From Octopus vulgaris (taxonomy: Eukaryota): DNA of 64,000 nucleotides. The position numbers and the translations under genes were made by a program. The notes under the pieces were generated by a model. The model was not told where the DNA came from, did not search any database, and worked only from the letters and a program-made list of their open reading frames with translations. The stretch lies in NCBI GenBank assembly GCA_951406725.2, contig OX597828.1:54436001-54500000 (forward strand), given 5' to 3'. Of the stretch, positions 2,104-60,718 are shown piece after piece; the first letter of the stretch is position 1, and each line of letters opens with the position of its first letter.

Positions 2104-2640
2104 TAAATTAGAGATAAAACCACTATTAGGAAAATCAAACAGTGAAAAACATAAACCAAAACATAAAAATAAATATAATTAATATAATATACAAAAAATC
2201 TAAAATTTAAAATATTAAATTTAAAATTTCTTATATTCATAAATTTTTATTATTTTATATTAAACATTTTAATACTTTTTGATAGTATAAAAAAAATTAA
2301 AAGTTTAAAAATTTATAAATTTAAAATTTTAAAAATATATAAAAAAAATAAATAAAATAAAAAAATAAAAAAATTAAAATTTATAAATATAAAAAATAAA
2401 AAAATAAAAATTTATAAATATAAAAATTTTTTAATTTAATGATTTAAATTTTAAATTTTATATTTTTTGTATATTATGTTAATTATATATATTTTTATGT
2501 TTTGGTTTATGTTTTTCACTGTTTCATTTGCCTAATAGTGGTTTTATCTCTAATTTAATTTATATTTATACCGTGAAATTTGATTTAATCTTAAATCTAA
2601 CTTTTCCCTTTAAGTTTGGATTTAATCCCTATTATATATA
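2097..2640. repeat. AT-rich foldback element between (TA)n tracts, arms about 2097-2225 and 2440-2564
   Basis: aattaaattagagataaaaccactattagg...acagtgaaaaacataaaccaaaacataaaaat is mirrored by atttttatgttttggtttatgtttttcactgt...cctaatagtggttttatctctaatttaatt. Confidence 0.85.
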
Positions 2641-2654
2641 TATATATTTTTAAA

Positions 2655-2972
2655 GACTCCGCCGGTTACGACGACGAGGGTCCCAGCTGATACGATCAAC
2701 GGAACAGCTTGCTCGTGAAATTAACGTGCAAATGGCTGAGCATTCCACAGACACGTGTACCCTTAACGTAGTTCTCGGGGATAATCAGCGTGACACAGAG
2801 AGTGACAAGGCTGGCCCTTTGAAATACAAGTACAACTCATTTTTGCCAGCTGAGTGGACTGGAGCAACGGGAAATAAAGTGTCTTGCTCAAGGACACAAC
2901 GCGTCGCCGGGAATCGAACTCACAACCTTACGATCATGAGACGAATGCCCTAACCACTAAGCCACGCGCCCT
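2655..2972 (-). mobile_element. tRNA-derived SINE, family D (head 1 + CORE-like body + tail T1)
   Basis: Pol III A box TGGCTTAGTGG and B box GTTCGATTCC on minus; gtgtccttgagcaagacactt body; homologous copy at 61861-62140. Confidence 0.85.
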
Positions 2973-3058
<86 letters not shown>

Positions 3059-3192
3059 TGCATATACATACATGCGGATAGATGAGTGTTATTTGCTTCT
3101 GTTGTCTGTTTTCAGCACTATCGTCAAGGATGTCATATACAACTGTACAACATACATTTATAAATGCCACATGAATAAGTGTGTGTATAGAT

Positions 3193-3240
<48 letters not shown>

Positions 3241-3557
3241 GCACACGTATATGAATGAGATATATATCTAAGAACATATATGTATAATGCAGTCATACAC
3301 TTATATGTGGACGTACGTAACAAGAAAACGGCGCGTTAAAATGATGACAGAATATAAAACACAGAACGCATTATTTTATAGAAAATCGAATCACGGGAGA
3401 CAAGATTAATGACGTGGAAACCACAAAACAACTCCAGCAATAACTTATCGACAACAACAATAACAGCGACCAAACACGAGAACAACAACATGAATAATTA
3501 CAAGATGTTTATATTAATTATTCTAATAAATTCATCTCACAAATATCAAAATGTAAT

Positions 3558-3616
<59 letters not shown>

Positions 3617-3742
3617 TGGCTTCGTAATTTATTTTGCGATTTTAAAACGTTTTGAATTTAATTTTTGTCTTTAACATTTTTTCTTCGCTGTTTATTTTTC
3701 AATGCGAAGCAATCTTTTTTTCAGTTCGTAAAAGAAAAAGGT

Positions 3743-3880
3743 AGGGCTAGGATAAGTCGATTACATCTACCCCAGTACTTAACTGGTATTTATTTCATCG
3801 ACCCTGAAAGGATGAAAGGTAGAAGTTGACCTCAACGGAATTTGAACTCAGAACGTAAAGACCGACGAAATGCCGCTAAG
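3743..3880 (-). mobile_element. SINE family B fragment
   Basis: Minus strand has acgttctgagttcaaattcc and cctttcatcctttcagggtcgat, as in the other B copies. Confidence 0.75.
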
Positions 3881-4315
3881 TCAGTATTGAGTACTCAATT
3901 TGTATTGAGTATACATGGAGTAATCAATACCTTGTATCTCTACCGTGAGGCTTTATTTCCACACACGCCAGCTTAATGTAATTCGTCCTTAGTCGAAAGA
4001 TACCTGTTGTTATGTCCCGTTATTTGTATTTGTGTAACATTCTCCGTTTTTTTTTACCGTCCTGGTTTTCGTATACATTCGCTGCTTTCTTCCAAGGAAT
4101 CTAATGCTCTTAGCTTAGTTATTCCTTGGGGTTGGCCAGATTGTAGCAATCTCGAGTATAATCAGCCGAAATTGCAAAGATAATCTGGAACTCGAGTGAG
4201 GAAAGAAAACTCCGAATGATCCGTCCTTGTTTTCTTTGCATCGTCTATCTAGATGTTTTGTTGTCCCCTTTTTTGTATCACTTAGGTGTCTGGATGCTTT
4301 CGGCGTTCTTGTCCC

Positions 4316-4318
<3 letters not shown>
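3881..4318 (+). mobile_element. Dispersed repeat (family G) ending at (TA)n; possibly Penelope-derived
   Basis: The 3' part (atcagccgaaattgc...ccgtccttgttttctttg...gcgttcttgtcc) recurs at 47106-47275. Class assignment is inference. Confidence 0.6.
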
Positions 4319-4380
<62 letters not shown>

Positions 4381-4383
<3 letters not shown>

Positions 4384-4860
4384 AGAAAATGAGATGACAA
4401 AGGAATAAGCGATTATTTTATGAACTTCAATAGCTTACAGCTGTTTCTGCTATAAGATGAAGTGGACTCATAGATGAGTGCCTGAATAACACCTTATAGC
4501 TTCATCGGAACCGCAAAAGAACATGCGTTACTCAGGTATTCAGTTCTGAGTCCACTGTGTTTTATAGCAGACACGGGTGTAATGAAGTTCATAAGATAAT
4601 CGTTCATCTCATTTTCTAACTACCACTCTGTACTCGACTAACACTTCGTTCTGAAGGATAAGCATATGGAGTACAAGTGTACTGAGTTCTATGGAAATGT
4701 GTACATGTCCATACGTAATGTGTATTTAACAGTATCAGAGAAATAAGTTGTCAACTCATTCCACAAATGACAATGTATTTCTCGAGGCATAACAATGGAT
4801 CCTGTCACATATTATTTACCTTCTAAGTTCAAATTTACTAAAGATTCACAGTTTTGCATT
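4381..4860 (-). mobile_element. (TA)n-abutting palindromic element with hammerhead-like motif (putative Penelope pLTR derivative)
   Basis: Long imperfect inverted repeat, about 4382-4490 versus 4527-4619; hammerhead-like motif at 4432-4512. Confidence 0.65.
4432..4512 (-). ncRNA. Type I hammerhead ribozyme-like motif (U4C core variant)
   Basis: GGTT-CCGATGA-A-GCTATAAG...CTTATAGC-A-GAAA-CAGCT-GTA-AGCT: long stem II, palindromic stem III ACAGCTGT, GUA triplet. Confidence 0.6.
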
Positions 4861-7776: not shown

Positions 7777-8512
7777 TGTAAGTGAATTTGTGTCTCTATC
7801 TCAGACGCGAGTGTTTGACGTGGCCGAATAGGTACGTACAAGTCAAAATACGAACGATCCCTTTCTCTTTCTCTACGTATATGTATGTGTGTACGTGTAT
7901 GTGTATGTGTGCGTCTGTGTATTTGTATGTGTGCGTCTGTGTATTCACGTATATACATATAAAGAAAGAGACAGTGCGTATTTTGACTTGTACGTAAACC
8001 TTGAGTAATCTCTCTCACTCATTTGGTCACGTCACACACGTAACACACACAAGCATACACAAAAAACACACATACCCACTGATACATATGTATATAATAA
8101 TTTAAGTCGGTCCAGTAGCCTGTTAGTCTCGTGTGCATAGGACGTGCTGCTGCGCTTCTTCAGACATGCTCAACAGATCTCTTTCAGCAGGTCTTTGGTA
8201 ATCTGATCTCTTAAAAAACTTTTTAAATGATAATTTTCAATAAAAAATATATCATGACTCAATAAAAAATTGCCCCCACCCACAAACACATACATGCATA
8301 CATACATATATACATACATATATACATACATAGATACACGCATACATACATAAAAGAAAACACACATCTGCACGTATACATTCATACATACATATATACA
8401 TACATACAAAAATACCCTGTTGCTGTTGTTGAAATTCCAATGAAGGGGCCTTGGAACTTGGTCAGAAGACGGATATTTCTCTATTGGCAAGAAATCTTGA
8501 AAGAAAACTGAA

Positions 8513-8920
8513 TAATCTTTTCTACTCTCGGCACAAGGTTCGAAATTTTTGGGGCGGGAGCCAGTCGGTTAGATCGACCCAGTATGCAACTGGTACTTAA
8601 TTTACCGACCCCGAAGGGATTAAAGGCAAAGTCGACCTCGGCGTAATTTGAACTCAGAACGTAAAGACAGACGATATACCTATTTCTTTGCTACCCACAA
8701 GAGGCTAAATACAGAGAGGACAAACAAGGACAGACAAACGGATTAAGTCGATTATATCGACCTCAGTGCGTAACTGGTACTTATTTAATCGACCTCGAAA
8801 GGATGAAAGGCAAAGGCAAAGTCGACCTCGGCGGAATTTGAACTCAGAACGTAGCGGCAGACGAAATACCACAAAGCATTTCGCCCGGCGTGCCAACGTT
8901 TCTGCCAGCTCGCTGCCTTA
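8513..8920 (-). mobile_element. Composite SINE B: head-body-tail1-body-tail2
   Basis: Two bodies joined at aaagaaatag|gtatatcgtctg (about 8680); flanked by aaaactgaat on both sides. Confidence 0.85.
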
Positions 8921-8964
8921 ATAAAACTGAATGACATACATATGTATTCTTTTATTCTTTTATT

Positions 8965-9310
8965 CTGTTACTTGTTTCAGTCATTTGAGTGTGACCATGC
9001 TGAAGCGCCGCTTTAGTCGAACAAATCGACCGCAGGACTTATTCTTTGTAAACCTAGTACTTATTCTATCGGTTATTTTTGCCGAACCTCTAAGGTACGG
9101 GAACGTAAACACACCAACATCGGTTGTCAAGCGATGGTGGTGGTGGGGACAAATACTGACACAAAGACACACACACACACATATATATGACGGGCTTCTT
9201 TCAGTTTCCGTCTACCAAATCCACTCACAAGGCTTTGATCGACCCGAGACTATAGTAGAAGACACTTGCCGAACGTGCCACACAGTAAGACTGAACCCAG
9301 AACCACATGG
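8965..9310 (-). mobile_element. SINE family A, near full length
   Basis: Homology to 23072-23508. Confidence 0.85.
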
Positions 9311-10060
9311 TATGTATATGTCTGTTTCCTGTAAAAGAACGTCGAAAAAATACCGGTTTTTAACGTTCTGGATTCGAATCCTTTTGTGGTCGATTGCACC
9401 TTTCATCCTTTCGACATCGATAAAATAAGCACCAGTAATCGGCTTTCCACTCTCCTTATTCTTCTTATTGTTGGCTTAGTGGTTAAGGTGTTGCTACTTC
9501 ACCGCATCCACGTGTTAGACTTTACCTTATATAAGAATCAACACTCCACACTTTTTCAAACCAAATTCCATTCTAACGTCTGTGCTAGAGTAATGCACTG
9601 TTTGAATCAGTAAATGCAGTTGGTTTTCCTCTTTCCATAGAGCTTCAGATCATCTATAAAAAAGGAAATGATCTTTTCTTTCCTTGAATTCATACTCATA
9701 ACATTTCGTGTTATGTATAGCGTCCTATGTGAAAGATATTTCCCTTATCACCGATCGACTGAAAATCGTAACAATTTTGCCACATTCCATTTGTAGCGCC
9801 CCCTCCAGCCGTGACCAGTTGCATTGACGTTATAGTGGAATGTTCGTTTATTTCGGCGCACCTCATACTAGAGTTTATTCGTCTGTCATTCATGCTGTTC
9901 CTTCAACAAATTAAGCTGAAACCACTCTAGGTATTAGAGTAGATACAGGTGATATAACAACACCTGTAACTATGCAACAGAAATAATTTTGCTTCATAGC
10001 AAAAGATTAGGGTTTTGCCTTCAGTTTCTGATCTTTCCCTTACTTGAATCATGAATCTGC

Positions 10061-10158
<98 letters not shown>

Positions 10159-10233
10159 GTATATATGTATATATATATATGTATATATGTATATATATAT
10201 ACATTGCATGTAGGTATACATGCATACATAAAT

Positions 10234-10266
<33 letters not shown>

Positions 10267-10376
10267 TACGCAGACACACATGTATATGTGCTTCTAAATC
10301 TACATCTATCTCTCTCTACATTTTTTTTTACTTATCTGTCTATTTAAGTCTTTCTCGCTCTCTATATATAAATATG

Positions 10377-10420
<44 letters not shown>

Positions 10421-10430
10421 CACACATATT

Positions 10431-10464
<34 letters not shown>

Positions 10465-10541
10465 AAGAGTTAAATAGACAAATAAGTAATATATATATAG
10501 ATGTGTGTGTGTATATGTATGTATGTGTGTATTTTTGTGCG

Positions 10542-10580
<39 letters not shown>

Positions 10581-10773
10581 CAGAGAAAAAGAGAAAGAGA
10601 GGAATAATGGCAGAAAGGAAGAATGAAAGACAAACAGACAGATCTAAAGGAAGAAAAAGTATATAATTTAAGTAAGCAGAATTATTTCGTTCTCTTCAGT
10701 TGAAGTCTTACAGCAACAACTCCAAATGACGATCATTCACCCTCGCAAAGTGAGAGTGAAAGGAATTAGAAAC

Positions 10774-10861
<88 letters not shown>

Positions 10862-11236
10862 GGCTTCCGTAGCTTCTCAGTTTTCCCGTGTCTTGAAGTT
10901 TTGGTATCGATGACATCTTAGTTGTGGCAGTGGTGGAGGTTTGTTGTGGTGGTGGAGGTGGTGGTGGTAGTGGTTTGTCGTTGTCGTTGTTGATGACACA
11001 CGGCGTTGACAGGTTTTGAAAAAACTGTACTCTATCTTTAAATAAATGATGCTTGCATTACTACGTGGATTAACTGATCGCTTCGTAACGCCATTTTTCT
11101 TTTTGGTTTCAATCCCACTGTCTTCTGCCTTAATTTTGAACAGACTAAAAAGAGGATTAGGAAATGGAAACTCGAAGATGCAAGCTTTTTCTATCAAACT
11201 TGTGTTTGGAACTCTCTATATTCTGTTAATGTAGGC

Positions 11237-12300
11237 ACTTCTTGTCTTGTCTTGAGACAGCATTCACCCGGGGTGGGTTGAGCTGGCTTCATTCATCCTC
11301 AATGCTGCGTCTCTCACAAACGCCGACCAGGCCTGGCGATTTGAGACTAACGACCGCGTGATCTCCAACCACTCCTTATTCCAGCAGCGAACGCACTAGG
11401 CACATGGCCTAGTGGTTAGAACAGCGGACTCGTGGTCGAGGGATCGCGGGTTCGAATCTCAGACCGGGTGATGTGTGTGTTTATGAGCGAAACACCTAAG
11501 CTCCACGTGACTCCGGCCGAAGGTAATGGCGAACTTCTGGTGAGTCTTTCGCCACAACTTTCTCTCACATTTTTCTCCTGCATCTTTCAGCTCACCTGCG
11601 ACGGACTGGCGTCCCGTACAGGTGGGGAACCTATTTGCGAAGGAAACCAGGAAACCGGCCCTTATGAACCAGGCATGGCTCGAGAAGGAACAAACGATAT
11701 TCTGTTAAATATAGCATTTCTCGAAGTTAGAGCATAACACTGTTGCCAGAGCTCCTATCAGAAGCTTTCTGTGTATTGTACTTACATTCTTTTCAATCTT
11801 TATTCATTTTTGTTTAGTCAATCCCATGTTCTCTGATTCAAGAAACAATGGAACCAGTCACCCTGTTTTTCCTGTCGTTCTTCCATCGTTACGCTGTTCA
11901 ACTTTGTTAAAACCTGGAGATGCTACTTTCCACAAGAATTTTATGGCCTATGATATTAACTCCTGCATCTACTCTTGGAGTAGTTCAGCATTCCCGATTG
12001 CAGTCCCTATTTGAAGAATCCATGAAGATATAAATAGCAATTGACTATCGCGAATGTCACATCATTTTGTTCCTAATTCCCGAGGCATTGTCATGGATGT
12101 CTCAAATTCTTGTGGTATTGTTTTCGACACCACAACTGCCGTTTGAAAAGAAAACAGAAACGATGAATGGTTATCAAAATCCAATAAAACTCTTTCTTAT
12201 GTAGCTTTCGCCAAATTCTGTAAAAGTAGTTTGTTCCCAAAGAATTTATTGCTTCTGTGGGTATTTCTAACAAATTTGATGCCAGTTCAATGAATTAAAG
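11237..12300 (-). mobile_element. Decayed RTE-like LINE 3' region interrupted by a SINE
   Basis: 11237-11396 reads RCWNKEWLEITRSLVSNRQAWSAFVRDA...STHPG* followed by a (CAAGA)n tail. 11700-12300 shows only weak RT-thumb-like remnants. Confidence 0.55.
11399..11695 (+). mobile_element. tRNA(Arg-like)-derived SINE, family E (head 2 + tail T2)
   Basis: A box tggcctagtgg, B box ggttcgaatct; close copy at 34674-34976. Confidence 0.9.
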
Positions 12301-12599
12301 TAAACGAAAATTGTTGTTCACTCCGAGGTAAGATCTGATCCAGGAAACTTAGCGTCAAAACAATTTTCTCGACGCCTATCGAATCTCTCTCACAATGTAT
12401 CTATCTAGAACTGCGATTCTTTAGAAAGTTAACGATTCCTGAATCTCAAAGGACATCAGTATGTCCATCAAAATTATTATCACCAGTTCTTATAGATGCC
12501 AGTGGGAGTTTAAAGATGTCAATATTTAGCTTTTTATTTTACAAAACAACAAAGAAAATTCGATTTCAATACATTTTTTAATATCTTGGATTATATTTG

Positions 12600-12815
12600 A
12601 GGCAAAGAGCTGGCAGAATCGTTAGCATGCCGGGTAAAATGCTTAGTGGCATTTCGTCCGTCTTCATGTTCTGAGTTCAAATTCCGTCGAGGTCGACTTC
12701 GTTTTTTGTGCTTTCGGGGTCGATAAATTAAGTACCAGTTTAGTACTGTGCTCGATGTAATCCACTTATCTACAGCTCCGAAATTGCTGTCATTGTGCCA
12801 AAATTTGAAATCAAT
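12600..12815 (+). mobile_element. SINE family B (tail-2)
   Basis: gagctggcagaatcgttagc...ttctgagttcaaattcc...ttgtgccaaaatttgaa. Confidence 0.8.
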
Positions 12816-12894
12816 ATCTTGGCTTATATTATGAGACGGATTCACCGTAACTTAACTATATGCTCTCTGCAATACCCCGTGCAGCATATAATGT

Positions 12895-13105
12895 CTCAAA
12901 TTTTGACACAAGGCCAGCAATATCGAGGAAGGGGCTAAGTCGATTAAACCGACCCCAGTGCTCAACTGGCACTTATTTTATCGACCCCGAAAATATGAAA
13001 AGCAAAGTCGACCACGGCGGAATTTGAACTCAAAACGTAAAGACAGACGAAATGCTGCTAAGCACTTCGCTCGGTCTGCTAACGATTCTGCTAGCGTGTC
13101 ACCTT
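12895..13105 (-). mobile_element. SINE family B (tail-2), inverted relative to the 12600 copy
   Basis: Reverse complement of the same motifs. Confidence 0.8.
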
Positions 13106-13920
13106 ACGGGCAGCATATAATGGAATCAAAAAGCTACCGTTTCTTAATCAAGATATTTATCAACGTGACTTGAATTGACTGATGGAGACCCGAACACTCA
13201 CAGCTAGAAGCCACTTTAGAATTTCACCAAATCTTTCTTTTTTCTCGACAACATACATCAGTTGTGGGCGCGTTCAATATCCAGGAAACTTTAAGTAATG
13301 TTGAGCCGAGTCAACCCGTTATTAAATGTTGCAACTCGAATTAAATGTGTTGAGAGCTGTTTTCTTTCCATTGCTCACTTACTCTCACACACTCACAGCA
13401 CACATATATACGCGCACACAAGCATATACACATAGATATGGATATAGTTAGGTATGTATGTATGTATATATGCGGGTGGCTAGAGCAACATGAAAAAGTA
13501 GGGCGGGCACCTACCTGGTGGTGTAGGTAAATTCCATTGCTATTAAATGAGCCATGTGCGATTAAAGGATCAAATAACACCAAATACAAAGCGATAAAAA
13601 GAAAAACACCAATAACAACAACAACATCAGCATCAACAGCAACAATAATCTCAAACAAATATCTTTGTGGTGTGTTCTATTCCACATTTCTCGTAAAATA
13701 CTTATATTTACACACACACACACATACGTACAAGGGCACAAACGCATACATGCACCATCTCACACACGGGTACGCACGCATAAACAAACACACACATACA
13801 TTCGTACTAACGCATTTTCATGTGTACATATGTACGTTTCATTATCACTACGTATATGTATATCCATGTATGTATGTGCGCGTGTGTGCATGTGGTGTGT
13901 GTGTGAGTGTGTGTGTGTGC

Positions 13921-14020
<100 letters not shown>

Positions 14021-14194
14021 ATATCCTGCACAGATCTTGATCTTCAGAGTTCAACTCTCAGCGCAAAACAGTTCAGCACAACCAGTAACATCTGTAGAAG
14101 ATACTTACCTGAGGTGCCTCGCCGTAGATTCGAACTCACCAACCGTTCAGTTATGACCTTATATATATATATGTATGTGTGTTGTGGATGTGTA

Positions 14195-14228
<34 letters not shown>

Positions 14229-14413
14229 CATACACACATACACACACACGTACACATACATGTGTGTGTGTGTGTGTGTGAATATGTGTTTGTATGTGTG
14301 CGTGCGTCTGTATGTGTGTGTGTGTGTGTAATCTATAAATTAGTGCTTTTACTAATATTGAGTCAGAAGATTTAATAGACGTCTGAACAAAGAAAAAAAT
14401 ATTTTTAAAAAAT

Positions 14414-14456
<43 letters not shown>

Positions 14457-14841
14457 CAACAATAGAAATAAAAGGCTTTAATGCTTTCCAAGCGAACCGG
14501 CCGACTGCAACGAGGCGCGAACTTAAAATAGCCGTAACACAGCGATCGACAAATGAAAACACGACAAATTACTTAATCTTTCCTATATTTCTCTTCCAGA
14601 CAAAGCCACATAAAATAAAAAAAAAAAAGATACAACTGTGTGTGTGTGTGTGTGTGTTATATGTACAAGCATATACGTATATACACAAATATACGTATAT
14701 AAATATATATATATATATATATATACGAACACATATATATATATTATATGTGCACATGTACACATATAAATATATATATATATAAATATATGTGTATATA
14801 AATATATATATGTATATATACACACACAGACACACACACAT

Positions 14842-14886
<45 letters not shown>

Positions 14887-15151
14887 AATATATACATGTA
14901 TATGTACACAGACACACACATGCATACAAATATGTGTGTGTGTGTATGTGTGTGTGAGTATATGTATATATATTTATATACACCCACACAAACTATAAAT
15001 GGCCTTACAAATAAATAGCTTAGACGAGGTATTAATTCCATTAAGAAATAAATTGAAACATCTGGCATACATACATACATAGGTACATGCACGCATATAT
15101 ACACACACACACATGTGTGTATGAAAATAATTACATCCATACACACATACG

Positions 15152-15222
<71 letters not shown>

Positions 15223-15324
15223 ATATATATGTATGTATGTAAATGAATGTTTTTGGCTTAATTTTTTTTGCCTCTCTTGCTCCCCCTCTTTTCCACACAA
15301 ACCCTCTCTCTCTCTCTATTTCTC

Positions 15325-15374
<50 letters not shown>

Positions 15375-15484
15375 AAACTCTATTACCTACATACACATAT
15401 ACGTAGAAGAAAATATTCACCTATCCATTTTTATTCCCTATTCTTTCAGTGTTTCAATACCTTTTCGATTTTCTAATCCCCACC

Positions 15485-15557
<73 letters not shown>

Positions 15558-15647
15558 TTATATATATTTATAGATACATATTTATATATATATATTGTAT
15601 TTTCAGCGTTGTTAATATTGATACAGATCTCTCTTTCTATCCATCTT

Positions 15648-15726
<79 letters not shown>

Positions 15727-16010
15727 GTCTGTCTTTCTGCCTGTCAGTCTGTCTATATTTTGTTCTTCTGTCATTTTTCTATCACTTAAACATTTTTTCG
15801 GTCTGTCAACTATTCATTCTTTCATTATTTCTTTCATATACCAGCACCACCAGCACCAGCACCAGCACCACCAGCACCAGCACCAGCACCAGCACCACCA
15901 GCACCACCGCCACCACCACCGCCACCACCACCACCACCAAAAACTACCACATTTTGGTCGATATCTTCATTCTTCCTGTGCTGTCTCTCTCTTTACTTTT
16001 CTCATATCTG

Positions 16011-16042
<32 letters not shown>

Positions 16043-16218
16043 AGTAATGGTGGGGGTAGTGGTGGTGGTGTAAGTGGTCATTGGATATGTTAAACGGGTG
16101 GATATCCTGAGAGGAACAGCACAGAACACCCACTCAGTCCATGACAACATTCTTCATTCAACAGGTAGCGGAGTTTTATGAACAGAACGAATATATAACA
16201 TCACTTTGCTGAACACTC

Positions 16219-16425
16219 AGGCGTGGTGTGTGGTAAAAAAGCTTGTTTCCCAACTGCATGGTTCCGGGTTCAGCCTCACTGCGTCTTGTGCTATAGCCTC
16301 GGGTTGACCAAAGCCTTGTGAGAGGATTTGGTTGACAGAAACCGAAAGAACGCTGTTATGTATATATGTATATTTGTTTCAGTCATTTGACTGTGGCCAT
16401 GCTGGTGCAGCCCCTTTAGTCGAAC
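16219..16425. mobile_element. SINE A fragments: head half (+, 16219-16350) and tail end (-, 16372-16425)
   Basis: Homology to full copies. Confidence 0.7.
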
Positions 16426-16664
16426 AGAAAGAAAGAAAGAAGGAGAAAGAAAAAGAAAGAACGAAAGAACGAAAGAAAGAAAGAGGGAGAAAGAAAAAGA
16501 AAGAACGAAAGAACGAAAGAAAGAAAGAGGGAGAAAGAAAAAGAAAGAAAGAAGGAAGGAAAGAAGACAAACTAAAAGAGAGAAACTATTACAGAGGGTG
16601 AGAGAAAATATAAGTAAGCAAGAGAAAGAGAGAATTAGAAAAGAGAGAGAATCGATTGAAAACT

Positions 16665-16863
16665 GCAATTTTTAGAGAAAAACCTGTGTAAAACACCTTT
16701 CCTCTGTTTCTCGCTTTATGCGGGAGCTCTGGGCAAAAAAATTGTAGTGCATAACCATCCTTGGCACATAAGTGATGTGTGTGTAACGTTTGGTGAAAAT
16801 CGGTTGAAAACTGTAGAAATGCATAAGCATTACAGACACAGATACACACGCAAACAGCGTTTG

Positions 16864-16872
<9 letters not shown>
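16665..16872 (-). mobile_element. Non-autonomous Helitron-like fragment
   Basis: tttggtgaaaatcggttg...acagacacagatacac...ttatatata layout resembles the ends of 38584-38882 and 63129-63668. Confidence 0.45.
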
Positions 16873-16909
<37 letters not shown>

Positions 16910-17099
16910 TTCAGAACTACGAGAAAATCCGTGATGATCCTTCCATTCGATATGTGGAGCGGTTAAAATAATAATGGGACGAAACTCAGAGGAACTTAAA
17001 TTATTAGGCTTAATTATAAGAGATGCATTCCTTACTCATGGCTGCTAAAGTGTCAATGTCAGGCAAAAATAGCTGCTACTTGGCTGCTGCCATTGAGAG

Positions 17100-26607: not shown

Positions 26608-27008
26608 ACGAGTGGCTGTGTGTTAAATAGCTTGCTTACCAGTCACATGGTTCTGGGTTCAGTCCCACTGCGTGGCACCTTGGGCAAGTGTCTTCTGCTT
26701 TAGCCTCGGGCCGATCAAAGCTTTGTGAGTGGATTTGGTAGACGGAAACTGAAAGAAGCCCGTCGTATACTCTTTAAGGTGGTGGGCTGGCAGAAACGTT
26801 AGTACGCAGGGCGAAATTCTTAGCGGTATTTCGTCTGCCGCTACGTTCTGAGTTCAAATTTCGCCGAGGTCGACTTTGCCTTTCATCCTTTCGGGGTCGA
26901 TTAAATAAGTACCAGTTACGCACTGGGGTCGATATAATCGACTTAATCAGTTTGCCTGTCCTTGTTTGTCCTCTCTGTATTTAGCCCCTTGTGGGTAGTA
27001 AAGAAATA
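26608..27008 (+). mobile_element. SINE A head half (26608-26769) followed by SINE B tail-1 (26776-27008)
   Basis: Homology to other copies. Confidence 0.85.
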
Positions 27009-27047
27009 TGTATTGTTGTTTGACGAAAGTGTTGATAGTTGTTGCTG

Positions 27048-27530: not shown

Positions 27531-27980
27531 GAGGCGGTGAGCTGGAAGAATCGTGAGCACGACAGGCAAAACGCCTGGAGACAACTTCGTCCGTTCTTAC
27601 GTTCTGAGTTCAAATTTCACCGATGTCGACTTTGCCTTTCATCCTTTCGGGTCAATAAATTCAATACCTATTTCTTTACTACCTACAAGAGGCTAAACAC
27701 AGAGAGGACAAACAAGGACAGACAAACGGATTAAGTCGATTACATCAATCCCAGTGCGTAACTGGTACTTATTTAATCGACCTCGAAAGGATGAAAGGCA
27801 AAGTTGACCATGACGGAATTTGAACTCAGAACGTAGCGGCAGACGAAATACGGCTACGCATTTCGCCCGGCGTGCTAACGTTTCTGCTAGCTCGCAGCCT
27901 TAATACCAGTGAAACACTGGGGGACGATGTAATCGACTAGCCTCACCTCCCCAAAATTCAAGCCAGGTGCCAATAATAGA
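27531..27980. mobile_element. Old SINE B (+) carrying an inverted, nested SINE B tail-1 (-, 27669-27901)
   Basis: aatacc is duplicated at 27663-27668 and 27902-27907, and the host sequence resumes after the insert. Confidence 0.85.
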
Positions 27981-30374: not shown

Positions 30375-30385
30375 ATATATATATG

Positions 30386-30428
<43 letters not shown>

Positions 30429-30429
<1 letters not shown>

Positions 30430-30539
30430 GTTAATCCAAATAAGTTAATCCAAACAAGAAAACAAAAACAAAAAAACAACAACGCAAGGACGTGGAACAA
30501 ATAAAGTATTATTGGACGCTCAGGAAAGAAGGGAAGAAG

Positions 30540-30541
<2 letters not shown>
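30429..30541 (-). mobile_element. Family H 3' fragment inside (TA)n
   Basis: Reverse complement of 45825-45922. Confidence 0.75.
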
Positions 30542-37049: not shown

Positions 37050-37441
37050 ATATTCTTTTCTATTCTAGGCACAAGGCCCGACATTTTTGGGGAGAGATCC
37101 AGTCGATTAGATCTACCCCAGTATGCAACTGGTACTTATTTTATCGACTTCGAAAGGATAAGAAGTAAAGTCGGCCTCGGTGGAATTTGAGCTCAGAACA
37201 TAAAGACAGACGAAATACCTATTTCTTTACTACCCACAGGAGGCTTAACACAGAGAGGACAAAGGACAGACAAACGGATTAAGTCGATTATATCGACCCT
37301 AGTGCGTAACTGGTACTTAATTTATCGAGCCCGAAAGGATGAAAGGCAAAGTCGACCTCGGCGGAATTTGAACTCAGAACGTAACGGCAGACGAAATACC
37401 GCTAAGCATTTCGCCCGGTGTGCTAATGTTTCTGCCGCCTT
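37050..37441 (-). mobile_element. Composite SINE B: head-body-tail1-body-tail2
   Basis: Same aaagaaatag|gtatttcgtctg junction (about 37219) as the 8513 composite. Confidence 0.85.
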
Positions 37442-43397: not shown

Positions 43398-43552
43398 TAG
43401 GCATGGCTGTGTGGTAAGAAGCTTGCTTCCCAACCACATGGTTCCGGGTTCAGATCTACTGCGTGGCACCTTGGGCGAGTGCCTTCTGCTACAGTCTCGG
43501 TCCGACCAAAGCCTTGTAAATGGATTTGGTAGACGGAAACTGAAAGAAGTTC

Positions 43553-43555
<3 letters not shown>
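43398..43555 (+). mobile_element. SINE A head half ending in (TA)n
   Basis: Homology to full copies. Confidence 0.8.
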
Positions 43556-43612
<57 letters not shown>

Positions 43613-43842
43613 GCGTGTGTATAACTATTTTCATTTATATTCCTGTGTATTGTGTTGAAGAAGGAAAAAAGACTTCTTTATGGCTTTAATCCAGAAACTG
43701 GACCCACTTTACAATTGGCGTGAAGTCCTTTTTTGTATTTTTTCATTTGCCCAACTGCAACTTGTGTTTTGGGGGTAGTTTCTTAGTACCTTTGTCTTCT
43801 ATTACAAGCATGCAGGAGACAGCTCTTTTCGCCCTGCTCCCT

Positions 43843-43892
<50 letters not shown>

Positions 43893-43920
43893 AGTTAAAT
43901 ACAGGTGTTATTCAAATTCT

Positions 43921-44017
43921 TTTACTTCCGACACATGTTTCGAAGACATCACATTGGTATTATTCCAAAGGAATAAAATGGTGTAAAACAATGTAATCAT
44001 CTCTTCAGGGAAATAAA
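43921..44017 (-). ncRNA. Type I hammerhead ribozyme with canonical core
   Basis: Stem I TTTATTTCC/GGAAGTAAA (9 bp, one GU); CTGAAGA at 44008-44002; extended stem II (ATTACATTG/CAATGTGAT, TATTCC/GGAATA); GAAA at 43941-43938; palindromic ACATGT in stem III; GUC triplet ending at 43930. Confidence 0.8.
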
Positions 44018-44559
44018 GAAATAAAAGTCGTCAATAAGACATTTTAACAGAATATGATGGATATGTATATTGGCAAACTGAACGCTTTTAAGTTTTCTTT
44101 TAAAAAAACTTTAGACGATATAACGTTAAAGGTAGCATATAGAACGAGGAGGGGGTAAAGGAAAGAAAAAATGAGAAATCAAATAAATGAGAATTATAGA
44201 ACGATATGTGAATTAAATAAAAGCCTAAAGTCTTGGTAAAAATATATCTAGTGGAAGTGAAATGCAAGAAGAAAATCAATGTTTAAATGATATACAATGG
44301 TAGATATTACTTGCTTGCAACTGAGTGGGGTGTTAGCAGTTTAAAATTGGGCGACGAGTTACGTCTAATATGTATGTATTTATATATGTAAGTATGTTTA
44401 TATGTATGCATGTAGGTATGAGTATATGTATGCAAGCATGTAGGTTTGTATACATATTTATGAAAATAACGTAACTCAAAAGAAAAATTACATTGGTATA
44501 TACGAAAGCGATTTTTTAAAAAAAATACACTAACTATAAGTCTTCTTTCTGACATGTAG

Positions 44560-44775
44560 ATAATAAGAAACCCACAAAGTTAGCTAACCGTATGTGACAC
44601 CACACACCATCAAATAGAACATCGTGGAAGGATACATGCCATGCATTAATGGATCAAAATGATGTAGGCTTGACTTAAGCGAAACTGTTTTTAGATCTAA
44701 CAACTCTACTGACCTGAAATTTTTACTAAGTGTAAGCCTCTGGACAAATTTCTTTTATTGAACTGGAAAACACTA
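44560..44775 (+). pseudogene. Decayed Penelope-like GIY-YIG C-terminus
   Basis: IK*NIVEGYMPCINGSK*CRLDLSE...EIFTKCKPLDKFLL resembles the PLE motif KWxI..PYxNGxKRCxLCLxE..ExxxKCRHxNKFLL. Confidence 0.55.
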
Positions 44776-45199
44776 CCCTCTCTGGATTAAGCATGTATTT
44801 TCACAAACTTTGACCTTTTCCCCGTTCAATTTATTTACACCACCCATATCAATTCTGATTCGAACGAGTTAAAAAGACGCCATTCTTAATTTTCTCATTT
44901 TTTTCCTAATCCGGTTTTTTTTCTTTTACCTTCCTCTCGTCTTTTCTCCTTGTTTTCCAAAGATCAACCATATTCTACAGTTGAGTCTGAAAGATTGTTT
45001 GGTGACTCATGGTGCGTTATATAAGCTTGTCTGATAGTAATGTTTTCACAAGCTACCAGCAGTAGCTTGAATTTAAATCCTATGTATAATTAATGATATT
45101 TATCCCTCACTAGATGGAGTATTTTTTTGACCCAATCAATAATGGAACATTACATTATACATACATACGTACATACATACATGCATAATGTATACTTAT

Positions 45200-45265
<66 letters not shown>

Positions 45266-45374
45266 ACACATATATACATATACATACATATGCATACATA
45301 TGATATAACGTTAAAGGTAGCATATAGAACGAGGAGGGGGTAAAGGAAAGAAAAAATGTATATTTTTTTATTGT

Positions 45375-45709: not shown

Positions 45710-45917
45710 TCAAAGTGTGACCGCGTGTGTACCGTTGCCAATTTTTTTTCCTCCGTCTTCCCTTCTTTGGATCTTTCCTTTTCCTATGTTTCTGACGGAG
45801 AAATGTTCGAAACGTTAAACCCTCCTTCTTTCCTTCTTTCCTGAGCGTCCAATAACACTATACTTGTTCCACGTCCTCGCGTTGTTGTGTTTTCTCTTTG
45901 TGTTTTCATGTTTGGAT

Positions 45918-49159: not shown

Positions 49160-49850
49160 TGATTAGTATAGGAGAGTCTCTAACGGGAGTCAATCAAGGA
49201 ACCCCACAGATCCAATGTTATCCAAAGCAACAAAGGCACCAGCCCTGGCCCAACTGTTCTCCAATCTACCGTAGGCTCATTCACCCTAACCATTTTTGTA
49301 ACAGTCACCCATTTTTTCGAAAATTCTCTGAGTAAGAACACTCTCCTCTCTACCCGGAGTGGCAGCTGCTGTGGGAACCGCTGGATGACAGACTCTGGTG
49401 ATGATGTTACTTCACGCTTTCCGATCCATGGTGCTGGCCTTAACATACTCGAGGTCGAGTAGCTGCGACTTCAGGGCTTCCTCAAATTGTTTCATAATTT
49501 CTTTGGTGTTTCTCCAGTGTGTGGAGACATAAATTCCAACCGTTCTACAGTTAATGTTAGGGCTAATCCTACATACCATGAAGTTATCATTGGTACATAT
49601 GGTATTCTCAAAGGGGCACGTTCTACACAGTTGTGATCTGATGGAATTCCTTGGCTTTTCAACAATCTTAATGTTGAGTTTGGTCTCCTTCAGAGCTTTC
49701 CTAAATCTACGGGCTATTTCTCCATGGGCTGTGGCCTCTACAAACATCACTCCTTGATATTTGTCGGTTTTATACCACGTGTTCACCCTGCTTGCTTTGT
49801 CACAAGCTCTTTGTATCCTATTCCAGTCTTAGCTTCTATATCTAGGTGTA
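49160..49850 (-). mobile_element. Rearranged Penelope-like fragment
   Basis: 49543-49846 is nearly identical to 52179-52469 (WYKTDKYQGVMFVEAT...CRT), then jumps to a different segment. Confidence 0.8.
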
Positions 49851-50645
49851 GTAGCCTTCTGGGGCTCATCCTGCAGACGTGACCGAACCAAGGTAGTATG
49901 AGCTGCAGGACTTGGTCTTCAATGATCGGCTGCTGCTATGGACCTCTATACCCACGTTGGCTCGGACAGATATGGTTAGGAAACTATCATAGCCAAGTCG
50001 ATAGAGTCTGACCGAAGTGGAAGGCGCCTTTCCGCAATCCTTCAAACCCACGCCCACCACACAAACTCTTTCTCCATAGTCACAAGACAGAGAATTACCT
50101 CCTGCCCTATCTTATCAAATGTGAGTAGTGGGGCGATCCGCACGACCGATTGTCAGATTCGCTTCACACGTGACAGAGGTTGTTCGATAGAACTCCACAA
50201 GTCAGCAATACTCGACCACTGCACGAGAGCGTGCATACGGTTTCGGCGCTCTGCTACATCTCGGTATGTCCTAGACATAGCAGATACACAGCTAAATTGC
50301 TCTATGGCCATGGGTCACTTGACTATGGAGTTGCTTCTGTTGCTGTTATTGTTTACCCCAAGGTCAACCTGAATCAAGCAGGGGGTCGATGCTAGATGGG
50401 TCGAAGCAATTGTAGTGATCAATAGACATTCTCGTTTCTTCCATCTTCTGTCTCTCTCATAAATAAAATACCCAACGATCACTGTGAAAGCGAACGTGCT
50501 TTACCGGTAAGCTACCAGGTGTATATCGTACGATTTATTCACACACAAACATATATGTATATATAAATTTATATGTATATATATATATATATATGTATGT
50601 ATCAAAAGAAAAACAGGACGTAAAGTTATCAAGTATTCACCGTGA

Positions 50646-51234: not shown

Positions 51235-53125
51235 TGCGTTCTTTTTGTTCGTTTGGGCGCATGCGTGTGGGTCAGTGTGTGCGCATGCACATGTGTGTAT
51301 GTATGTATGTATGTATGTATGTATGTATGTATGTATGTATGTATGCATGTGTGTATGCATGCATGTATGTATATGTGTGTGCGTATGTATATATGTATGT
51401 GTGTGCGTACGTTCGTATGTATGTATTCTGCACATTCATGTTTGTGTTTGTGTATTCGTGTTTTGCATGTGCGTGTGTGTGTGTACATCTGTCTCCTTGT
51501 GTGTGCATGTCTAAGTGTGTCTGTGCGTGTGCATGGGTTTTGTGACTATGTACTGTGACTGTATGTATGGATGCGTATCTCCATATATGTGGACGTGTGT
51601 CCCCATATGGTCCTTGTGTGAAGTGTGTGTGTATAAGGTCATGTGTTTCAGTCTTCATTTCCGTATTGTGTGTATGTGTGCTTGTCTGTTCATATTACCT
51701 ATGTACCTATCCGGGTGTATGTCTGTTTACTTTCATACCCATTTACCTACATACATGTGCATATACATATACATATGTACACACACGCACACACATGCAT
51801 ACATCTACATAACATCCCATTAACTATTCTACCTGTATATAAATATAAACTGTGGGTATGGGGGGTATGATTATCTACTACATATATTTCCTATTTAGTA
51901 CTGAGATGTTTCATTCATAAGGACGTGCTCCTTTATTTGTCTGAGTGTTGGGTCCTTTGAGTGCTTGGATAAAATGCGGATGTCATGTTGACCCAGGCTG
52001 CTTCCATGTTGGTCCTTGGCATGTTGGTAGAGTATGGAGGACTGTTTTTTGTCGTTATATTGTCTCAAATGTTCATTTAGTCTTTCCGCAATACTTCTCG
52101 ACGTCTCCCCTCTGTATGTCATATTCGTGTCTTTACAAGCACCTTCTATGCATCTTATGCTGTAAACTCCATTTCTAGTTCTACAGTTAATGCTAGGGCT
52201 AATCCTACATACCATGAAGTTATCATTGGTACATATGGTATTCTCAAAGGGGCACGTCCTAAACAGTTGTAATCTGATGGAGTTCCCTGGCTTATCAACA
52301 ATCTTAATGTTGAGTTTGGCTTTCCTAAATCTACGGGCTAGTTCTCCATGGGCTGTAGCCTCTACAAACATCACTCCTTGATATTTGTCGGTTTTATACC
52401 ACGTGTTCACCCTGTTTGCTTTGTCACAAACTCTTTGTATCCTATTCCAGTCTTTGCTTCTATATCTAGGGCAGGTATCACTGGTTTCATTACATATAAT
52501 GTTATCTAACTTCTTTCTGGCACCTCTGTATACTCGAACCCTATCTTTGTGATCATATTCAGAGAATTGCATGCGGTGCATGAAGTTCTGTACATGTTTC
52601 TTCGTTTCATAGGGCTTGCCTAGTGGGGACATGCATTTCTCCTCAGCAAAATCTATGTCTATAGATGGGTAGAGTAAAATCATATCCATACTACCCACTA
52701 CACAACCTGGAGTGGTTGCAAGTACTGATTTTACTGAGGATATCTTCTGTGCTCACGTAGACATCTGAGGACACTTCTACGAGAGGTCGTGATACTTGTG
52801 AGAGAAAGTAGGACAGTCTATAATTGCTGGAGATATTCGCTTGGCAAACTGGTCAGGTTGGGGGCACCATGACAGAGTTTAAGTAGGGTTTGTGATCGTT
52901 ACGTAACCCGTATCGTGTAGGAACATCACCACCACCAATAGCAACAACAATGCCAGCAACAATAACAACAACAACAACAACCACAACGATAATTCTATTT
53001 TCTATAAGCCTAACAACAAACCTTATGACATGACGAGGATCTACCCTACGGATAAGTACATAGGTAATATGAACAGACAAGCACACATACACACACATAC
53101 GCCAAGGAAGACTGAAACACACGAC

Positions 53126-59747: not shown

Positions 59748-60718
59748 AGGCGGCGAGCTGGCTGAAACGTTAGCACGCCGGCCGAAATGCTTAGCGGTAT
59801 TTCGTCTGCAGCTACGTTCTGAGTTCAAATTCCGCCGAGGTCGACTTTGTCTTTCATCCTTTCGGGGTCGATAAATTAAGTACCAGTTACGCACTGGGGT
59901 CGATGTAATCGACTTAATCCGTTTGTCTTTCCTTGTTTGTCCCCTCTGTGTGTAGCCTCTTGTGGGTAGTAAAGAAATAAGTATTTCGCCTGCCGCTACG
60001 TTCTGAGTTCAAATTCCGCCGAGGTCGACTTTGTCTTTCATCCTTTTCGGGGTCGATTAAATAAGTACCAGTTATGCACTGGGATCGATATAATCGACTT
60101 AATCCGTTTGTCTTTCCTTGTTTGTCCTCTCTGTGTGTAGCCTCTTGTGGGCAGTAAAGAAATAGGTATTTCGCCTGCCGCTACGTTCTGAGTTCAAATT
60201 CCGCCGAGGTCAACTTTGCCTTTCATCCTTTCGGGGTCGATTAAATAAGTACCAGTTACGCATTGGGGTCGATATAATTGACTTAATCCGTTTGTCTTTC
60301 CTTGTTTGTCCCCTCTGTGTGTAGCCTCTTGTGGGCAGTAAAGAAATAAGTATTTCGCCTGCCGCTACGTTCTGAGTTCAAATTCCGCCGAGGTCGACTT
60401 TGCCTTTCATCCTTTCGGGGTCGATTAAATAGGTACCAGTTACGCACTGGGATCGATATAATCGACTTAATCCGTTTGTCTTTCCTTGTTTGTCCCCTCT
60501 GTGTGTAGTCTCTTGTGGGCAGTAAAGAAATAGGTATTTCGCCTGCCGCTACGTTCTGAGTTCAAATTCCGCCGAGGTCGACTTTGCCTTTCATCCTTTC
60601 GGGGTCAATTAAATAAGTACCAGTTACGCACTGGGGTCGATATAATCGAATAAATCCCTTTGTCTGTCCTTGTTTGTCCCCTCTATGTGTAGCCCCTTGT
60701 GGGCAGTAAAGAAATAAG
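59748..60718 (+). repeat. SINE B tandem array: one head + five 184-185 bp body-tail1 units
   Basis: Units start at 59797, 59981, 60166, 60350 and 60534. Confidence 0.95.

Follow-up and report, generated by a model that had tools for sequence, protein, structure and literature searches.

A type I hammerhead motif in the (TA)n-anchored 3' end of a high-copy, probably Hydra-clade Penelope-like element of Octopus vulgaris

Hydra-clade Penelope-like elements (PLEs) insert at (TA)n and carry a type I hammerhead core close to their 3' end along with a stem III that is weak and self-complementary (PMC8557442), all features that recur at the locus described here. In the supplement to that work, 26 of 27 Hydra families are placed at (TA)n, including Hydra-1_Obim of Octopus bimaculoides. 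Counted by eye, three of its six new Hydra consensuses end 36-47 nt past the ribozyme cut and the other three about 90-115 nt past it, and a hammerhead roughly 35-45 nt before (TA)n is already published as a Hydra-clade layout. The clade is defined by RWK, DKT, a CxCX5C linker, and CxxC and CxH motifs (PMC8557442). Inverted 5'-truncated copies and tails of 30-40 nt are standard for PLEs (PMC8557442), and one Repbase Hydra family carries an inverted 5'-truncated copy at its 5' end (PMC8557442 supplement). More generally, animal type I hammerheads have a weak self-complementary stem III and cleave better as dimers (PMC4209133, PMC7229834, PMC3088659). Those of PLEs cut poorly in vitro (PMC4209133), and in one reconstituted PLE cleavage needed protein and was dispensable for insertion (PMC11167929).

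Within the 64-kb stretch of DNA that we analyzed (the window), the minus strand carries a type I hammerhead motif at 44020-43917, identified by descriptor scan, shuffles, and Rfam alignment, with a predicted cut between 43930 and 43929. The core CUGANGA, the GAAA strand, and the NUH site are all present in type I order, and the pairs of all three helices are possible. Reading along the minus strand, the 5' strand of stem I (44017-44009) is followed by the catalytic core CUGAAGA (C3-A9, 44008-44002), an extended stem II region, the GAAA core strand (43941-43938), stem III, the GUC site, whose C17 is at 43930, and lastly the 3' strand of stem I (43929-43921). Stem I of this copy can form 9 contiguous base pairs, one of them U·G, with 3 more past a bulge. 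A 39-nt tail 3' of the predicted cut (43891-43929) opens with the stem I 3' strand and finishes at 43891 with the letters TTTAACTCC. There the element gives way to a perfect (TA)23 microsatellite (43845-43890), the likely insertion target, given that Hydra families target (TA)n in PMC8557442. The initial annotation, made from the letters of the sequence, had seen a minus-strand type I hammerhead with every element in order and an element end about 40 nt past the cut at (TA)n, and both observations stand.

A scan of both strands with hammerhead descriptors returned two loose matches, only one of which, at 44020-43917, has G-C at 10.1/11.1 plus C-G at 15.2/16.2. When the entire 64 kb was shuffled 200 times on both strands, block by block with dinucleotides preserved, a descriptor with a stem I of at least 9 bp, which has one match in the window, found nothing in any shuffle (0/200), nor did the strict G-C/C-G descriptor with a stem I of at least 6 bp (0/200); the loosest descriptor averaged 0.24 matches per shuffle against the two observed. 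Rfam at its gathering threshold had no match across the window, and the 41 weak matches obtained for 43400-44600 did not include any hammerhead. Aligned to a 141-nt stretch that was hand-picked post hoc, the RF00163 model (Hammerhead_1) nonetheless spans 44014-43924 on the minus strand from model position 1 to 45 of 45, at 23.9 bits (E 5e-4), below its gathering score of 34. Because the hammerhead of an apparently intact relative (L001, below) also goes undetected by Rfam, the cut-off misses such variants. An exact 22-nt pattern had no match in metagenome contigs and none in viral contigs. A chance resemblance in AT-rich DNA would fit the score below gathering and the fold of the whole hammerhead region, whose z is only -2.0, but the shuffles, the majority bases of the family, which improve predicted pairing, the full-length RF00163 alignment, and a position that matches the known layout refute it, and we give it virtually no credence. 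The hammerhead motif is real.

Stem III is the 8-mer ACAUGUGU (43931-43938, minus strand). Within a single molecule it offers 2 bp and a tetraloop at +2.4 kcal/mol; two molecules together form a helix of 8 bp whose two central pairs are G·U wobbles, at -6.0 kcal/mol. A duplex of the off-register palindrome ACAUGU, which had been named as the palindrome within stem III, likewise reaches -6.0 kcal/mol, but catalysis requires A15.1 paired with U16.1, so the catalytic helix is ACAUGUGU and not ACAUGU; the Rfam alignment uses the same register. ACAUGU is indeed a palindrome, lying out of the catalytic register, and a weak self-complementary stem III that favors dimers is in line with PMC4209133 and PMC7229834. 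We also considered that stem III was once a perfect palindrome since changed by CpG decay, and rejected this, as no such majority difference occurs in the best 40 of 341 difference rows from the sequencing runs.

Sequencing runs place the motif in a large repeat family. Part of 43891-44360 is contained in 20 of 24 indexed runs, under four species labels. Contigs were placed on 43879-45160 at 80% likeness from three DNA runs (species labels A, C, and D; 2373, 2465, and 1742 contigs) and from X15 (218 contigs), a run guessed to be RNA. The X15 contigs give no indication of strand or level and do not serve here as evidence of expression. What follows draws on the best rows, 40 of 341 for differences, 12 of 47 for gaps, and 24 of 1137 for loose ends. 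Summed contig depth, which is not a copy number and is good to an order of magnitude only, reaches 113,000-330,000 over 43879-44007 in the three DNA runs, then falls to 40,000-169,000 at 44008-44050, 12,000-73,000 at 44051-44093, and about 1,000 at 44094-44136; a near-identical contig of run X3 spanning 44259-44769 with two differences has a depth of 53. The profile delimits a hammerhead-bearing arm of about 208 nt (43891-44098, minus strand), the non-coding 3' end of a high-copy element. To an order of magnitude, the family comprises thousands of dispersed copies.

The ends of these contigs carry further information. Loose ends at 43881/43885 are heterogeneous and AT-rich, with an agreement of 0.58-0.65 in the best 24 of 1137 loose-end rows of the three DNA runs, and such low agreement past the TA run is the pattern expected of dispersed insertions. 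A fixed 3' end with coverage declining toward the 5' side, as found here, marks a dispersed repeat. In a subset of contigs the TA run is preceded by about 13 additional nt. One subfamily differs in its distal tail, yet its distance from cut to end, counted from an X15 loose-end row, is again 39 nt. None of the best 40 of 341 difference rows falls on a core or stem III position. The window copy itself stands about 11-14% apart from the family contigs (16-20 differences per 120-180 nt). Two X15 contigs leave the window exactly at 43929, the first base past the predicted cut, which we treat as a lead only, the type of that run being uncertain.

The initial annotation had noted that both PLEs and non-LTR retrozymes carry type I hammerheads. 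As a retrozyme, the arm would be a solo monomer of a tandem 170-400 nt repeat making circular RNA. Very high abundance would suit this, and the canonical core, G10.1-C11.1, the 2-bp stem III with tetraloop, and the 6-bp stem I of the family resemble invertebrate retrozymes (PMC7229834). However, the window holds neither a tandem unit nor a second copy, the contigs run past the TA run into heterogeneous AT-rich flanks rather than into a next unit (seen in the best 24 of 1137 loose-end and 15 of 43 joint rows), and a Penelope-like ORF remnant adjoins the arm. We regard the retrozyme as highly improbable and keep the Penelope-like element at (TA)n.

Closed by G10.1-C11.1, the stem II region occupies 60 nt (44001-43942, minus strand), with 13 pairs between arms at 44001-43989 and 43956-43942 and a 32-nt loop II that contains a 7-bp hairpin at 43976-43960. 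Its fold has a z of -2.3, and 5 of 200 shuffles are equally stable. An unusually extended stem II had been remarked on from the start, and the extension is shared by the family. The window copy departs from the family within this stem, having a U·U at pair 3 and a 2-nt bulge. At 43999 (stem II position 10.3) it has a U that faces U, where 96, 94, and 90% of summed contig depth in the three DNA runs carry an A that forms a Watson-Crick pair; the bulge at 43949-43950 is absent in 63, 28, and 52% of depth in those runs, which makes the 13-pair stem continuous, one wobble and one mismatch included. Majority bases, taken position by position and not as linked haplotypes, restore stem II pairing. 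In stem I, pair 7 is broken by the base found at 44015 in 85-89%, and the family version of this stem is therefore 6 bp, then a small internal loop, then some 5 further bp. The 9-bp stem I of the initial annotation is correct for the window copy and particular to it, most family copies differing at the seventh pair. One loose-end consensus has a U at the free core position 7.

These differences matter for the predicted fold. In nearest-neighbor prediction, with tertiary contacts and protein outside the model, the core GAAGA of the window copy pairs with the 3' arm of stem II at a probability of 0.62-0.67, G10.1-C11.1 has a probability of 0.0, and the active fold is not the predicted minimum. 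The probability of an open core with stems I and II closed is 1.3e-4, or 5.5 kcal/mol above the ensemble. Substituting the family base at 43999 raises this probability to 0.04; removing the bulge as well gives 0.10, with G10.1-C11.1 at 0.93; and adding further family bases gives 0.03, so that the four family-type variants span 0.03-0.10. No second family copy lies within the 64-kb window, so there is no dimer in cis nearby. On these predictions the window copy quite probably misfolds and would cut far less than family-type copies. The earlier description of it as possibly active is not supported, given the U at 10.3, where 90-96% of summed contig depth has A, the predicted GAAGA trap, and the missing cis partner. 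The prediction is weakened by two precedents, an axolotl hammerhead whose stem II has a U·U at its base and whose monomer nevertheless reached 22% cleavage in an hour (PMC7229834), and an anole PLE hammerhead that cleaved only once its protein was added (PMC11167929). A conserved AC-rich hairpin like that of the anole element was looked for in the 39-nt tail, where the fold is unstable (z +1.1).

An intact core and a stem I longer than in most copies could also mean that this copy has been retained by the host as an active ribozyme that processes a host transcript. Its distance from the family contigs is, however, what neutral decay would produce, its private stem II change is predicted to be harmful, and no dimer partner is nearby. 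Retention by the host is therefore a very remote prospect. The window copy is most likely a silent fossil, because of the mutation at stem II 10.3, with its predicted trap, and because no partner copy is nearby.

What lies beyond the arm bears on its identity. On the plus strand, 44099-44772 is probably the decayed C-terminal end of a Hydra-clade Penelope-like ORF, comprising the end of the reverse transcriptase thumb, a linker, and a GIY-YIG endonuclease, with stops and frameshifts and an interruption by a TATG-rich repeat at 44368-44434. We judge the remnant real but faint. Pfam found nothing in six frames of 44021-45160. Among 1.84 billion proteins, 44462-44731 had four matches, three of them unrelated repeat proteins matching in short pieces at similar E-values. 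The sole full-length match, P0003 (residues 2-80, 42% identity, E 7.6e-5), comes from Octopus vulgaris by its source and also matches 44716-44763, outside the query frame. Its origin and the window's richness in microsatellites both point to a likely octopus host. A search with P0003 led to the full-length P0006 and then to 512 relatives, of which 120 were listed; Pfam found nothing in P0003 or P0006. Among those listed, RWK is present in 47 of 51 full-length proteins and DKT/DKS in 38 of 51, and the endonuclease motifs CxCx4-8C, CxxC, and CxH occur in 117, 117, and 116 of 120.

A profile of the last 260 residues of the 120 relatives, from which the window sequence and P0003 were left out, was then compared with the locus. 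Allowing frameshifts, it scored 56.9 at 44456-44772, against a mean of 32.6 and a best of 50.9 for 40 background tiles and a best of 36.2 for 15 shuffles. The match continues collinearly at 44099-44291 with a score of 38.5, where the best of 15 shuffles reached 28.6; the upstream piece alone scored 40.5 against 39.8 for the best of 158 tiles, a narrow margin. A single-frame hmmsearch gave E 0.13, and P0006 by itself scored 46 against the locus, not above shuffles (maximum 50). The Hydra motifs of the remnant are decayed, reading KCKKK at the linker, CRLDL for CxxC, and CKP for CxH. The locus lacks the N-terminal part, where the related full-length proteins have RWK/DKT. The remnant's segment 44117-44173 (57 bp) recurs 1185 bp away at 45302-45358, identical throughout (100%) and set between a microsatellite and a different repeat. 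This second segment has the window copy's own bases at 44127, 44145, and 44173, where paralogs differ, and is therefore a recent local duplication or an assembly artifact.

Past the end of the ORF, 44773-45080 is by its position the presumed 3' UTR of the plus-strand copy, and its last letters, TTTAAATCC, ending at 45080, resemble the arm end TTTAACTCC. It includes a possible hammerhead relic at 45024-45054 (plus strand), 33 nt before 45080, with a 7-bp stem around CUGAU...UUC and with stem II and GAAA missing. The relic, which was found post hoc, is equaled in 10 of 5000 shuffles and in 2 of 328 tiles, one of these being itself, and it has a competitor in an 8-bp hairpin of the same stretch. 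Just downstream, 45083-45125 has a summed depth of 2,400-4,700, above its neighbors, and is a separate small repeat.

The locus thus consists of (TA)n, a 208-nt minus-strand hammerhead end, and, head to head with it, a 5'-truncated plus-strand Hydra-type copy. ORF homology begins at 44099, which coincides with the end of arm coverage, and a short AT-rich fold-back lies at this junction (44090-44111), the fold of 44076-44125 being weak at -4.7 kcal/mol. No coding sequence was found on the hammerhead's own strand, where the arm is truncated at about 44098; ORF homology is confined to the opposite strand. The clade of the arm is for this reason drawn from its layout and its neighbor. Comparison of the arm with the plus-strand 3' UTR gave scattered similarity only (local p 0.16, global p 0.37), and this missing alignment is a misfit with a simple one-step inversion. 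The candidate in which the arm split an older ORF, with the upstream part at 43610-43845, was rejected, since the score there (22.5 against 20.1 +/- 3.0) is not above shuffles; with no ORF continuation to the left of (TA)n, the arm did not split an existing ORF.

One reading of this architecture is that the two halves are mere neighbors, the arm coming from another PLE clade, such as Neptune, or from another family, and having inserted beside an older Hydra remnant. PLEs tend to insert next to older PLE copies (PMC6765202), the window holds other PLE families (at 51898-52752 a GIY-YIG remnant, at 45792 and 19231 minimal hammerheads), no significant similarity links the arm to the plus-strand 3' UTR, and the possible relic has a different stem I. 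The canonical core, the 39-nt tail, and (TA)n are, on the other hand, the Hydra layout, the ORF does not resume left of (TA)n, and paralogs share the junction. We consider separate origins unlikely and prefer an arm of Hydra-clade origin.

The shared junction raises a further possibility. Diverged contigs cross about 44099 collinearly in three DNA runs (X3, 44000-44182 with 24 differences; X5, 44017-44170 and 44032-44203; X9, 43955-44149, 43974-44144, and 43990-44151), and the fused form therefore exists in more than one place, having either been retrotransposed as a unit from antisense read-through or been carried within segmental duplications. If the former, the arm and the antisense ORF piece would form one non-autonomous unit copied genome-wide, whose tail for reverse transcription came from an old head-to-head insertion with transcription entering from the right. 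This would complement the explanation by a Hydra-clade PLE and not replace it. A variant at 44097 common to 10, 7, and 11 contigs of the three DNA runs is consistent with such a unit. So is the depth of 9,000-17,000 at 44180-44308, which exceeds the 20-1,400 of most of the downstream endonuclease part, the opposite of what 5' truncation of a plus-strand copy would leave. Against this, the depth spanning the junction is about 1,000 (some 20 contig-equivalents) compared with more than 100,000 over the ribozyme, an indel and a nearby microsatellite in the window copy can account for the drop at 44312, the contigs are short, and segmental duplication would yield an identical pattern. We rate a retrotransposed fusion as less likely than not.

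Several other repeats share the window. The minimal hammerheads at 45792-45816 (plus) and 19231-19204 (minus) come from other repeat families and each have a palindromic ACGU stem III and one core mismatch. A (TA)n follows the one at 45792-45816 after about 105 nt, and 30375-30541 repeats the 3' part of that hammerhead. Another Penelope-like element is represented by two fragments, at 51898-52752 and 49529-49852 (both minus), which are 92% identical to each other in DNA; this element has a weak match to GIY-YIG (PF01541, E 5e-4), below the curated cut-off. A tandem array at 59797-60716 holds about 5 units of 184 bp that are 94-95% identical and related to dispersed repeats at 8512-8931, 26774-27015, 27662-27913, and 37050-37436. 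Two self-inverted stretches of about 480 bp, 2091-2570 and 12609-13095, are 80% and 74% identical to their own reverse complements and are possibly MITE-like or head-to-head repeats.

Taken together, these data support a model in which the hammerhead sits in the 3' end of a high-copy, likely Hydra-clade Penelope-like retroelement beside a decayed ORF, in a family whose copies would likely cut weakly, and best as dimers, and of which the window copy is predicted to misfold. We think this model as a whole probably correct. That the arm is a Penelope-like 3' end is very likely; that the arm itself belongs to the Hydra clade is likely to a lesser degree. The arm combines a (TA)n insertion site and a canonical hammerhead close to its 3' end, a pairing not exclusive to Hydra. 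By analogy with Hydra and Poseidon elements (PMC8557442, PMC11167929), the element protein would nick (TA)n and the RNA would be reverse-transcribed from its 3' tail, a process that would leave numerous short 3' stubs, each with the ribozyme. Where the RNA is tandem or read-through, two hammerheads may swap ACAUGUGU strands into an 8-bp stem III, and cleavage by the dimer would then follow GUC, at a point 39 nt from the end of the element. The change observed at stem II 10.3 of the window copy is predicted to let the core GAAGA pair with the 3' arm of stem II instead.

By itself the window copy adds little, being one decayed stub among many. The family offers more. With its long stem II, very many copies, and presence in related species, it would be a good natural data set for covariation, and would suit the question of whether the fixed 39-nt spacing from cut to end is selected. 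It may represent an undescribed Hydra-type end with thousands of octopus copies, a 13-pair stem II, and a 32-nt structured loop, whose fusion with an antisense ORF fragment was itself retrotransposed, although we rate this full combination as doubtful. If true, a hammerhead-bearing tail alone would suffice to mobilize anything upstream of it. The literature searched had no description of this family, nor of octopus hammerheads besides those in PMC8557442; Repbase, Dfam, and subscription journals lay outside the search, and the family may for that reason already be catalogued.

Set beside its closest relatives, the locus shares a layout and differs in its parts. A metagenome contig (L001, 220-2508) holds an apparently intact Hydra-type element with a full ORF and a hammerhead at about 2430-2478, in which the core is followed by 33 nt past the cut and then (TA)n, the same layout in an independent element; a second contig (L002) ends before the hammerhead/(TA)n point. 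Compared with Hydra elements, the ORF remnant here lies on the opposite strand from the hammerhead. The ORF of Hydra-1_Obim ends in KFLLQNWKT and the remnant in KFLLLNWKT, compared by eye, but the hammerhead of Hydra-1_Obim, with a 7-bp stem II, an 8-nt loop, and other stems I and III, marks it as a different family from the arm (PMC8557442). Mussel, coral, and axolotl retrozymes resemble the arm in being high-copy, of type I, and equipped with a 2-bp stem III and tetraloop (PMC7229834; bioRxiv 10.64898/2026.07.22.740005). They are, however, tandem repeats making circular RNA, whereas the window copy occurs singly, has its end at (TA)n, and lies next to a PLE ORF remnant. The invariant core, G10.1-C11.1, and 6-bp proximal stem I of RF00163 and metazoan type I hammerheads are also found here, and in metazoan type I hammerheads stem III likewise pairs fully only between two molecules (PMC4209133).

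Stem II is where this family stands apart. Relative to the RF00163 model it contains a 56-nt insert, which would place loop 2 too distal for the contact that loop 1 usually makes with loop 2. The 26 Hydra rows of File S2 have a stem II of at most 7 bp and a loop II of at most 10 nt, against 60 nt, 13 pairs, and an inner hairpin here (PMC8557442), a region more than twice the span of that in any listed Hydra hammerhead and a 13-pair stem that is the longest among the animal PLE hammerheads listed there. A long stem II does have precedent, because two plant PLE hammerheads, PLE-X1_sMoe and PLE-X1_sTam, have stem II regions of about 50 nt, made up in PLE-X1_sMoe of 9 bp and a 34-nt loop (PMC8557442), and both are flagged in File S2 as deviating from the canonical structure. 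Those elements are endonuclease-less, target rDNA, and come from spike-moss, and their likeness to the octopus family lies in the size of stem II.
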